A stretch of DNA of 32,000 bases from Schaalia meyeri (GCF_900105015.1 NZ_FNLK01000012.1:385749-417748), one strand, 5' to 3'. Shown: positions 20,253 to 32,000, counted from the first letter of the stretch. Numbers and translations are program-made. Notes: a model not told the origin generated them from the letters alone.

Positions 20253-21011
20253 TCAATCCGGATCAAACTGGGTGTGATCCCACGTATGCGCGCTCACGGC
20301 TACTATCGCCACCGGGCAGGTGCCCGCCTCGCCGCGGTCCAGACGCGGAATCGCCTTATCCAGGCTCGTGACCGTCGTCGTCGTTAAATCGAGCGGAAGC
20401 GCTAATTCACGCTGTCGATCACACCTCTTCTTTGCGGGGCATTTCGTCGCAATGCGAACGTCTTCGGGCCTCACTTTCAAATGGTCTGCCCAGAGCTCGC
20501 ACGCAATGTCAAACAGAGAGGCGCGATCTTTGGTGATGATCACTGCTCCATCAATGAGCCCATCCTCATACCACGCACGATAGGCGGCCAGATCACGGTC
20601 GAGATTGCCATCCTTCGCGTTCCATTCGACATCGACCAGTACGCGACCTTTGCGATTATCCACCCAATACGAAGGCATTTCCACCGCGGGGAATTCATCG
20701 AAGGAACGCCCCTTTTCGCGATATTCAATACGACCCTCACGCCTGACAACGTATCGACATTCGGCCCAGCCGCGAGCTCTCAGCGCACAGTTGAGCTCGT
20801 CTGCCATCGCGGAGTTATTTCCGCCAGCGCGCAAAAGAAGATTTGCAGAAAAGCTGAATTTGTCGAGAACATCAATGATATCTGACCATTCATTGGGCGC
20901 GACGGCAGACAGGACGCCACACGCATTTCGCACCTCATGAAACGAGTACTTTTTTCGCACGCTTACGGGGACGATACCGGGGTCATCGTACGACTCTGTT
21001 TGAACCGTCAT
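20253..21011 (-). CDS. Type II restriction endonuclease, BglII/BamHI-like fold
   Basis: 252 aa. WVDNRKGRVLVDVEWNAK and GAVIITKD resemble the BglII segments DIDFGKRDTLVEVQFSN and VAIIITKG, recalled from memory. Divergent from a DNA methyltransferase gene. Confidence 0.65.
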   Translation of the reverse strand: MTVQTESYDDPGIVPVSVRKKYSFHEVRNACGVLSAVAPNEWSDIIDVLDKFSFSANLLLRAGGNNSAMADELNCALRARGWAECRYVVRREGRIEYREKGRSFDEFPAVEMPSYWVDNRKGRVLVDVEWNAKDGNLDRDLAAYRAWYEDGLIDGAVIITKDRASLFDIACELWADHLKVRPEDVRIATKCPAKKRCDRQRELALPLDLTTTTVTSLDKAIPRLDRGEAGTCPVAIVAVSAHTWDHTQFDPD

Positions 21012-21076
21012 GCGGCCATATTAGCACGGGTAATAACCATATATTGCGTATGACGGAGACCACTCACCGTCAGCCA

Positions 21077-21100
21077 ATTTAGATCTATATTTAGATCTAT
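21077..21100. promoter_or_regulatory. Tandem 12-bp repeat ATTTAGATCTAT x2, each holding the 8-bp palindrome TAGATCTA; candidate operator in the R-M divergent promoter
   Basis: Read directly. It ends 11 nt before the methyltransferase ATG. Each unit contains an AGATCT (BglII-type) site. Confidence 0.6.
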
Positions 21101-21111
21101 TTGGTACTAAA

Positions 21112-21972
21112 ATGGGCGTCATGAGCAACGACCTATACGCCCCACTGCCCACCGTCGCAGGCGGCTTTTCAACGATCATGTCCGATCCGCCGTGGCGCTT
21201 CCAGAATCGGACAGGAAAAGTTGCTCCGGAACATAGGCGACTCGGGCGCTACGGCACGATGTCACTCAATGACATTAAAGCGTTGCCGGTTGCTGATATA
21301 TCAGCAACGAATGCGCACCTGTACCTCTGGGTCCCCAACGCACTCCTTCCAGAAGGAATTGAAGTGATGTCTGCGTGGGGATTCCGTTACGTCTCGAACA
21401 TCGTCTGGGCAAAGAGACGAAAAGATGGCGGACCTGATGGACGGGGAGTGGGGTTCTACTTTCGGAACGTCACGGAACTCCTGCTGTTCGGAGTTCGCGG
21501 GCGAATGCGAACTCTCGACGCTGGGCGGCGCCAAGTAAACATGATCGAAACACGCAAACGCGAGCATTCAAGGAAACCCGATGAACAATACGATCTGATC
21601 GAATCGTGTTCACCGGGACCGTACCTCGAGATGTTCGCGCGCTATCCGCGACCCGGCTGGGCAGCGTGGGGCAATGAAGCGGATGAGGGCATCGAACCGC
21701 AAGGAAAGGCCTACAACGGATACCGGGGCGGCGAGATCGAACCCTCACCGACTCCCCTCCCATCCCTGGAGTCGCACCAGCGCCTCCCCCACGACTTAGA
21801 GGTCGCCGTGGGCGCCGAGCTCCGACGCCAGTACGAGCAAGGAAACTCCATCAACGACCTCGCCTCCCTCCACGGGTACTCAATCGCGCGCGTGCGCCGC
21901 TACCTCAGCCTCGCTTCTACTCCCCTGAGGCAGCGCGGAAAAGGGCCTCATCCCACGGCCACCAAGGAATAA
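21112..21972 (+). CDS. MT-A70-family DNA methyltransferase (DPPW) with a C-terminal helix-turn-helix extension
   Basis: IMSDPPWRF catalytic motif, plus LYLWVPNALL and VWAKRRKDGGPDGRGVGFYFRNVTELLLFG. The C-terminal ~60 aa (QGNSINDLASLHGYSIARVRRYL) looks like an HTH. Confidence 0.85.
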   Translation: MGVMSNDLYAPLPTVAGGFSTIMSDPPWRFQNRTGKVAPEHRRLGRYGTMSLNDIKALPVADISATNAHLYLWVPNALLPEGIEVMSAWGFRYVSNIVWAKRRKDGGPDGRGVGFYFRNVTELLLFGVRGRMRTLDAGRRQVNMIETRKREHSRKPDEQYDLIESCSPGPYLEMFARYPRPGWAAWGNEADEGIEPQGKAYNGYRGGEIEPSPTPLPSLESHQRLPHDLEVAVGAELRRQYEQGNSINDLASLHGYSIARVRRYLSLASTPLRQRGKGPHPTATKE

Positions 21973-22007
21973 CGCAGACGATCCGAAAGCCGTGCTCACG
22001 GCCCAAC

Positions 22008-30810: not shown

Positions 30811-30845
30811 GTTGGGCCGTGAGCACGGCTTTCGGATCGTCTGCG

Positions 30846-31706
30846 TTATTCCTTGGTGGCCGTGGGATGAGGCCCTTTTCCGCGCTGCCTCAGGGGAGTA
30901 GAAGCGAGGCTGAGGTAGCGGCGCACGCGCGCGATTGAGTACCCGTGGAGGGAGGCGAGGTCGTTGATGGAGTTTCCTTGCTCGTACTGGCGTCGGAGCT
31001 CGGCGCCCACGGCGACCTCTAAGTCGTGGGGGAGGCGCTGGTGCGACTCCAGGGATGGGAGGGGAGTCGGTGAGGGTTCGATCTCGCCGCCCCGGTATCC
31101 GTTGTAGGCCTTTCCTTGCGGTTCGATGCCCTCATCCGCTTCATTGCCCCACGCTGCCCAGCCGGGTCGCGGATAGCGCGCGAACATCTCGAGGTACGGT
31201 CCCGGTGAACACGATTCGATCAGATCGTATTGTTCATCGGGTTTCCTTGAATGCTCGCGTTTGCGTGTTTCGATCATGTTTACTTGGCGCCGCCCAGCGT
31301 CGAGAGTTCGCATTCGCCCGCGAACTCCGAACAGCAGGAGTTCCGTGACGTTCCGAAAGTAGAACCCCACTCCCCGTCCATCAGGTCCGCCATCTTTTCG
31401 TCTCTTTGCCCAGACGATGTTCGAGACGTAACGGAATCCCCACGCAGACATCACTTCAATTCCTTCTGGAAGGAGTGCGTTGGGGACCCAGAGGTACAGG
31501 TGCGCATTCGTTGCTGATATATCAGCAACCGGCAACGCTTTAATGTCATTGAGTGACATCGTGCCGTAGCGCCCGAGTCGCCTATGTTCCGGAGCAACTT
31601 TTCCTGTCCGATTCTGGAAGCGCCACGGCGGATCGGACATGATCGTTGAAAAGCCGCCTGCGACGGTGGGCAGTGGGGCGTATAGGTCGTTGCTCATGAC
31701 GCCCAT
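30846..31706 (-). CDS. MT-A70-family DNA methyltransferase, right-arm copy
   Basis: Identical translation to 21112-21972. Confidence 0.85.
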   Translation of the reverse strand: MGVMSNDLYAPLPTVAGGFSTIMSDPPWRFQNRTGKVAPEHRRLGRYGTMSLNDIKALPVADISATNAHLYLWVPNALLPEGIEVMSAWGFRYVSNIVWAKRRKDGGPDGRGVGFYFRNVTELLLFGVRGRMRTLDAGRRQVNMIETRKREHSRKPDEQYDLIESCSPGPYLEMFARYPRPGWAAWGNEADEGIEPQGKAYNGYRGGEIEPSPTPLPSLESHQRLPHDLEVAVGAELRRQYEQGNSINDLASLHGYSIARVRRYLSLASTPLRQRGKGPHPTATKE

Positions 31707-31717
31707 TTTAGTACCAA

Positions 31718-31741
31718 ATAGATCTAAATATAGATCTAAAT
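31718..31741. promoter_or_regulatory. Tandem ATTTAGATCTAT x2 operator candidate, right-arm copy
   Basis: Mirror image of 21077-21100. Confidence 0.6.
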
Positions 31742-31806
31742 TGGCTGACGGTGAGTGGTCTCCGTCATACGCAATATATGGTTATTACCCGTGCTAATAT
31801 GGCCGC

Positions 31807-32000
31807 ATGACGGTTCAAACAGAGTCGTACGATGACCCCGGTATCGTCCCCGTAAGCGTGCGAAAAAAGTACTCGTTTCATGAGGTGCGAAATGCGTGTG
31901 GCGTCCTGTCTGCCGTCGCGCCCAATGAATGGTCAGATATCATTGATGTTCTCGACAAATTCAGCTTTTCTGCAAATCTTCTTTTGCGCGCTGGCGGAAA
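31807..32000 (+). CDS. BglII-like restriction endonuclease, right-arm copy, truncated by the window end
   Basis: Begins MTVQTESYDDPGIVPVSVRKKYSFHEV…, identical to the N-terminus of 20253-21011. Confidence 0.65.
   Translation, partial: MTVQTESYDDPGIVPVSVRKKYSFHEVRNACGVLSAVAPNEWSDIIDVLDKFSFSANLLLRAGG

Follow-up and report, generated by a model that had tools for sequence, protein, structure and literature searches.

A 5.5-kb inverted duplication at a contig end of the Schaalia meyeri draft genome is almost certainly a long-read sequencing and assembly artefact

The 32,000-nt stretch of the Schaalia meyeri draft genome analysed here (GCF_900105015.1, NZ_FNLK01000012.1:385749-417748; termed the window below, with positions counted from its first base) contains a large inverted duplication from position 20818 onwards. 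It carries a restriction-modification (R-M) gene pair, a ykoEDC-like energy-coupling factor (ECF) transporter with a thiamine pyrophosphate (TPP) riboswitch, and part of a CycA-like amino acid permease gene. The question raised by this locus is whether the palindrome belongs to the chromosome. A preliminary description had left two readings side by side, namely a real and recent fold-back duplication, or a chimeric palindromic read or contig end with low-coverage indel errors. The latter is supported by the contig-end position and by a closed genome, while the former found no support, as the closed genome is single-copy and the palindrome ends with the contig. The 5.5-kb inverted duplication was deduced to be, almost certainly, a long-read sequencing and assembly artefact at a draft contig end rather than a biological feature. 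This was deduced because the palindrome stands at a contig end, similar structures recur on 4 of the 15 contigs, the closed genome is linear and single-copy at the locus, the differences between the arms are of an error type, and the spacer consists of 124 nt of true sequence plus an 11-nt filler.

A repeat search over the whole window placed the left arm at 20818-26342 and its reverse complement at 26478-32000, separated by a 135-nt spacer (26343-26477), which reproduced the coordinates and spacer first described. The structure was made up of four collinear inverted-repeat blocks (20818-25280/27538-32000, 25313-26028/26790-27505, 26030-26162/26657-26789, and 26161-26342/26478-26659). MAFFT alignment of the left arm (5,525 nt) with the reverse-complemented right arm (5,523 nt) gave no substitutions and exactly four one-base indels, in agreement with the four single-base indels noted earlier. 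These were a run of five G at left-arm position 25277 against four at 27542 in the right arm, a run of four C at 25312 against five at 27506, and two places, 26790 and 26657, where the right arm was one base short. None of the four differences was further than 1.1 kb from the hinge, and the arms were identical over their outer 4,463 nt. A palindrome of such a size cannot arise by chance.

The window corresponds to C4:385749-417748, and contig C4 is 417,748 bases long, hence the right arm stops at the last base of the contig. The window had been said to end inside the right arm, which is correct, but the contig itself ends at that same base. Since the right arm ends exactly where C4 ends, the left boundary at 20818 was deduced to be a mere mirror image of the contig end about the hinge. 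The boundary respects no gene, as it cuts the gene for a BglII-like restriction endonuclease and leaves only the 5' part of it inside the arm. In a real fold-back duplication the right arm would leave the palindrome into other sequence, or the mirror image would run on without limit and be backed by reads, but here its end is the end of the contig. A palindrome running to the contig end had been named in the preliminary description as the outcome that would speak against a real rearrangement.

The most informative comparison was with CP066065.1 (GCA_016127995.1), a closed chromosome of 2,033,037 bp that was found by look-up of the MT-A70 protein encoded in the arm, and whose corresponding locus is here called L012. 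L012 matched C4:396860-412090 over 15,232 bp with no mismatches and one gap, an identical ISL3 insertion included. Because of the absence of any mismatch and the shared ISL3 insertion, the CP066065.1 strain was deemed indistinguishable from that of the draft over these 15.2 kb. The left arm alone (L012 9707-15232) likewise gave no mismatches and one gap. It was assigned as genuine chromosomal sequence, present in one copy in the closed genome and with a single draft error, a one-base deletion at 25312 where four C stand for five. The whole region is single-copy in CP066065.1 and runs linearly through the hinge, with the endonuclease, the methyltransferase, a fused ECF ATPase/T component (827 aa), YkoE (199 aa) and an intact 490-aa permease. 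These are followed by a 159-aa gene, DUF2249, a YjgF/RidA-family gene, a 643-aa gene, VTC, DUF4956 and an MFS transporter.

A second assembly, KV814503.1 (approximately 99% identical), has the same gene order as CP066065.1 and is also single-copy and linear through the hinge. The fold-back junction is therefore without support from independent data of the same genome, as represented by CP066065.1 and KV814503.1. Three genomes of related species (G014, G015 and G017; 81-84% DNA identity) are collinear through the hinge as well, with a full-length permease. Among named organisms, those closest at the permease locus are Pauljensenia sp., Actinomyces sp. ICM47 and Schaalia turicensis. No counterpart of the genes downstream of the hinge in these three genomes was found in the draft, and for this reason synteny with them alone cannot tell an assembly gap from a real break.

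The spacer was separated into two parts. At the fold-back junction stands an 11-nt filler (26343-26353, TTAGGAATTTC) that is untemplated, being present neither in the closed genome nor in the three relatives, which all read ...GCGCGCGA joined directly to TGTCCGCGAA... at that point. The remaining 124 nt (26354-26477, plus strand) are the true continuation downstream of the left arm, in reverse complement. They equal L012 15233-15356 of the closed genome and encode approximately residues 91-131 of the CycA-like permease, with a translation that begins ARDLIGPWAGFVTGWTYW. Traced on the real chromosome, the molecule follows the top strand to a point x, passes through 11 junk bases and then reads the bottom strand backwards from x+124. 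The strand switch thus jumps from L012 15232 to 15356, a distance of 124 nt, around record positions 1,652,363-1,652,487 of CP066065.1. The spacer had been described as the continuation of the permease frame, halting abruptly at a TAG. The continuation holds for the 124 nt but not for the first 11, and the TAG is indeed there but lies inside the filler and outside the permease sequence. No microhomology able to explain a snap-back was evident at the junction, as judged by eye only. The filler appears to be unlike the Oxford Nanopore (ONT) or SMRTbell adapter sequences.

The differences between the arms were also informative when set against the closed genome, which has the longer version at all four sites. 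One deletion is thereby assigned to the left arm (25312) and three to the right arm (26657, 26790 and 27542). Four frameshifting deletions without a substitution, all within 1.1 kb, are the signature of consensus errors. The arms of a real duplication would be expected to differ by ordinary mutations, whereas four one-base deletions and no substitutions were found. The differences in the G and C runs (four against five in each) had been regarded as compensating. They exist, but as draft errors rather than compensating mutations, each being a deletion when set against the closed genome, with one in either arm. The correct permease C terminus, ...GDGGTGEGPHTGPHLHE before the stop, requires one site from each arm. 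Only when one site is read from the right arm and its partner from the left does the C terminus become ...RGVLGDGGTGEGPHTGPHLHE before the stop, which is that of the relative and of the closed genome. Redundant overlapping contig ends elsewhere in the draft gave 33 gap letters against 3 mismatches in 27 kb, a predominance of indels like that between the C4 arms. This profile points to a long-read consensus that is prone to indels and poorly polished at its contig ends, and the platform was probably Oxford Nanopore.

The draft (G000) comprises 15 contigs and 2.03 Mb, with a marker-gene completeness of 99.9%. Self-BLAST of the draft revealed terminal fold-back palindromes on 4 of the 15 contigs, at the 3' ends of C1 (178735-183701), C4 (406566-417748) and C11 (447776-459460) and at the 5' end of C7 (1-12745). 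Their hinges are at approximately 181,218 (C1), 412,090 (C4), 453,618 (C11) and 6,373 (C7). The three others resemble that of C4 in their position at contig ends, in having arms of 2.5-6.4 kb and in having hinges within ordinary genes. None of them has an asymmetric spacer as long as that of C4 (135 nt) or arms as clean (four differences in C4). The arm differences were mainly indels in C7 and C11, substitutions made up 11 of the 18 in C1, and the differences were concentrated beside the hinge. Contig C6 matches C1 up to the hinge and then runs into unique sequence, and C5 does likewise at the C11 hinge. Since C6 and C5 read straight through, the draft contradicts itself at the C1 and C11 hinges.

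Beyond the furthest point reached by C4 (record position 1,652,487 of CP066065.1), 9,087 bp of the closed genome (1,652,488-1,661,574) are absent from the draft. Contig C6 begins at the next base, 1,661,575, and is 100% identical over 6,250 bp. From this adjacency, the true neighbour of the C4 end would be the start of C6. The missing segment holds about ten genes, comprising the 5' end of the permease gene, DUF2249, YjgF/RidA, VTC, DUF4956, MFS and several unannotated genes. A tblastn search of the draft with the first 108 residues of a relative's orthologue did not find the permease 5' end, returning only paralogues at 37-44% identity on C1, C2 and C13, together with 19 residues already contained in the spacer. 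The check proposed earlier, whether an intact permease 5' end exists elsewhere, is answered by its presence nowhere in the draft and in place in the closed genome. Apart from the fold-backs, untrimmed overlapping contig ends were observed in the draft for C1/C6, C2/C9, C5/C11 and C13/C14, and for C2/C3/C10/C13 against C11:311-318 kb. At several contig ends the sequence breaks off within a single 6-kb repeat of C11, probably a ribosomal RNA operon.

Two observations weigh against the interpretation as an artefact. The C4 hinge is crossed by no other draft contig, unlike the hinges of C1 and C11, and for that reason the closed genome was needed to settle the case of C4. The closed genome, in turn, is a separate assembly, indistinguishable over the approximately 21.5 kb that were compared, and may come from another DNA preparation than the draft. 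The principal alternative is that a double-strand break within the permease gene led very recently to a real palindromic duplication, carried by the sequenced culture as a whole or by part of it. The junction anatomy is like that of biological fold-back inversions, in that the spacer is short and asymmetric and a few bases are inserted, and the absence of the permease 5' end and of 9 kb beyond it from the draft would fit a break with distal loss in some molecules. However, an unresolved chromosomal palindrome that ends in nothing would give no viable circular chromosome, and this one stops where the contig does. Arms that had only just formed would be identical, and those of C4 differ by four deletions that shift the frame, without any substitution; the closed genome shows each deletion to be an error. 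Moreover, the structure is shared by three more contig ends of the draft, two of which are contradicted within the draft itself, and at this locus an indistinguishable strain has, in its closed genome, one copy in linear order. A real duplication was therefore deemed very unlikely. It is slightly less likely again that a minority of cells or molecules truly carried a palindromic fold-back at the break in the cycA-like permease gene, and likewise at the three other hinges. If that were true, the four hinges would point to recurrent snap-back repair in an oral actinomycete rather than to a library artefact.

A covalently closed hairpin telomere of a linear replicon, read through by long reads and hence assembled as a terminal palindrome, was also considered. 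Hairpin telomeres are known to yield terminal palindromes at contig ends in long-read assemblies, which is the arrangement seen on C4. The turn of C4 is nevertheless asymmetric, with 124 nt plus an 11-nt filler instead of a perfect hairpin, and the hinge falls within a conserved gene, that of the permease, which the closed and related genomes carry intact and at an internal position. A search for the ResT/TelK telomere resolvase domain (PF16684) gave no match in the 99.9%-complete draft. On the grounds of the asymmetric 135-nt turn, the internal position of the locus in the closed genome and the lack of a PF16684 match in the draft, the hairpin telomere was rejected as vanishingly improbable.

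If the palindrome is an artefact, as is proposed here, its formation may be described as follows. A chimeric fold-back read would follow the top strand to window position 26342, carry approximately 11 junk bases and then return over the locus on the opposite strand, starting 124 nt further downstream. Where coverage was weak, the assembler would have extended C4 with such a read into a dead end, so that an inverted second copy of approximately 5.5 kb was appended and the contig stopped. The right arm (26478-32000) would then be an artefactual second copy of 20818-26342, inverted, bearing its three one-base deletions and ending on the last base of C4. One or a few fold-back reads are inferred to be the cause. 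The four arm differences would represent deletion-type consensus errors in poorly covered sequence near the fold. The real chromosome would have one copy of the R-M genes, of the TPP-riboswitch-controlled ykoEDC-like ECF transporter and of an intact 490-aa CycA-like permease gene, and would then continue linearly through 9.1 kb into C6.

The relevance of these data is primarily for quality control, as approximately 5.5 kb of false duplicate stands at the end of C4 and similar blocks stand on C1, C7 and C11. The draft gives a false second copy of the R-M pair, the TPP riboswitch and the ECF transporter, and in it the CycA-like permease looks truncated and frameshifted, yet this permease is intact in the closed genome. 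Counts of gene copies, pseudogenes or inverted repeats are better taken from CP066065.1 than from the draft. More generally, fold-back chimeric reads can persist in deposited bacterial assemblies as terminal palindromes.

The gene content of the arms was assigned from Pfam, NCBIfam and Rfam searches, which bore out the R-M genes, the ykoEDC-like transporter, the TPP riboswitch and the permease listed in the preliminary description. The BglII-like restriction endonuclease gene (20253-21011, minus strand; PF09195, E = 6.5e-18) is followed by that of an MT-A70-family DNA methyltransferase (21112-21972, plus strand; PF05063, E = 1.8e-29). The two genes (20253-21972) are divergently transcribed, the methyltransferase has a C-terminal helix-turn-helix, and the arrangement resembles a compact type II R-M pair. 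Proteins identical to this pair were found in several oral metagenome runs. A fused ECF ATPase-ATPase-T component, YkoD-YkoC-like (22008-24551, minus strand), has two ABC_tran domains and CbiQ and matches TIGR04520/TIGR04521; it is 827 aa in the closed genome. The YkoE-type ECF S component (24502-25137, minus strand; PF09819, E = 7.2e-38) is called in the closed genome as 199 aa from an ATG at 25101. Upstream of this ykoE-like gene is the TPP riboswitch (25133-25234, minus strand; RF00059, 69.3 bits against a gathering score of 54.3), with its mirror copy at 27584-27685 on the plus strand.

The permease fragment of the left arm (25263-26342, minus strand; PF00324, E = 1.6e-78) comprises residues 132-490 of 490 of a CycA-like APC amino acid permease of the D-serine/D-alanine/glycine type. 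It is closest to the D-serine/D-alanine/glycine transporter CycA (NF008272), with 646.6 bits, a score under the 732-bit equivalog cut-off. The fold-back cuts this copy, and the draft deletion at 25312 shifts its frame close to the 3' end. Both copies had been described as lacking their first 100 or so codons. Both are indeed truncated at the 5' end, but the left copy, beginning at residue 132, lacks 131 codons, and the right copy together with the spacer, beginning at approximately residue 90, lacks 89.

Two further features were observed outside the palindrome. The ISL3-family insertion sequence (15507-16942, 1,436 bp) encodes a 436-aa transposase (15626-16936; PF01610 plus a zinc ribbon) and has imperfect 47-nt terminal inverted repeats (15494-15540/16909-16955). 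It is present in three 100%-identical draft copies (C4:274852, C4:401255 and C8:63536). The insertion occupies the same site in the closed genome, and the 99%-identical KV814503.1 is without it there. Window positions 3558-14000 resemble a polymorphic toxin locus equipped with spare toxin tips as well as immunity genes, a putative assignment from domain content. This region encodes a 1,493-aa protein with an N-terminal type VII secretion system signal domain (PF21725) and a weak C-terminal match to TNT (NAD-glycohydrolase toxin). Downstream of it are small open reading frames, including an ADP-ribosyltransferase-like one of 154 aa (9822-10286) and an orphan TNT-like one of 120 aa (12663-13025), as well as repeated cassettes that are 83-89% identical.

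Among known systems, biological fold-back inversions of the breakage-fusion-bridge type share with C4 the inverted duplication and the short asymmetric spacer at the break. Such inversions are backed by many reads and by a step in copy number, and they run on into other sequence. C4 is unlike them in that its palindrome stops where the contig stops and has no counterpart in the closed genome of an indistinguishable strain. The closer likeness is to the fold-back artefact reads defined by Heinz, Meyerson and Li (2026, PMC12870357) as returning over the same locus on the opposite strand with a breakpoint within 200 bp, a limit that the 124-nt strand switch of C4 satisfies. Such artefacts account for approximately 0.55-0.6% of ONT genomic DNA reads and are missed by adapter-based trimmers (PMC12870357). 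Their junctions can contain a few bases that do not align but need not do so (PMC12870357), and in C4 there is the 11-nt filler. A symmetry filter places the breakpoint of such reads near the read midpoint, to within 10% (PMC12870357), and the only contig-level analogue of this is the 5.5-kb right arm, which stops at the contig end. The two cases differ in that Heinz et al. (PMC12870357) dealt with single reads and false structural-variant calls in human data, whereas here such a read would have been built into the end of a bacterial contig.

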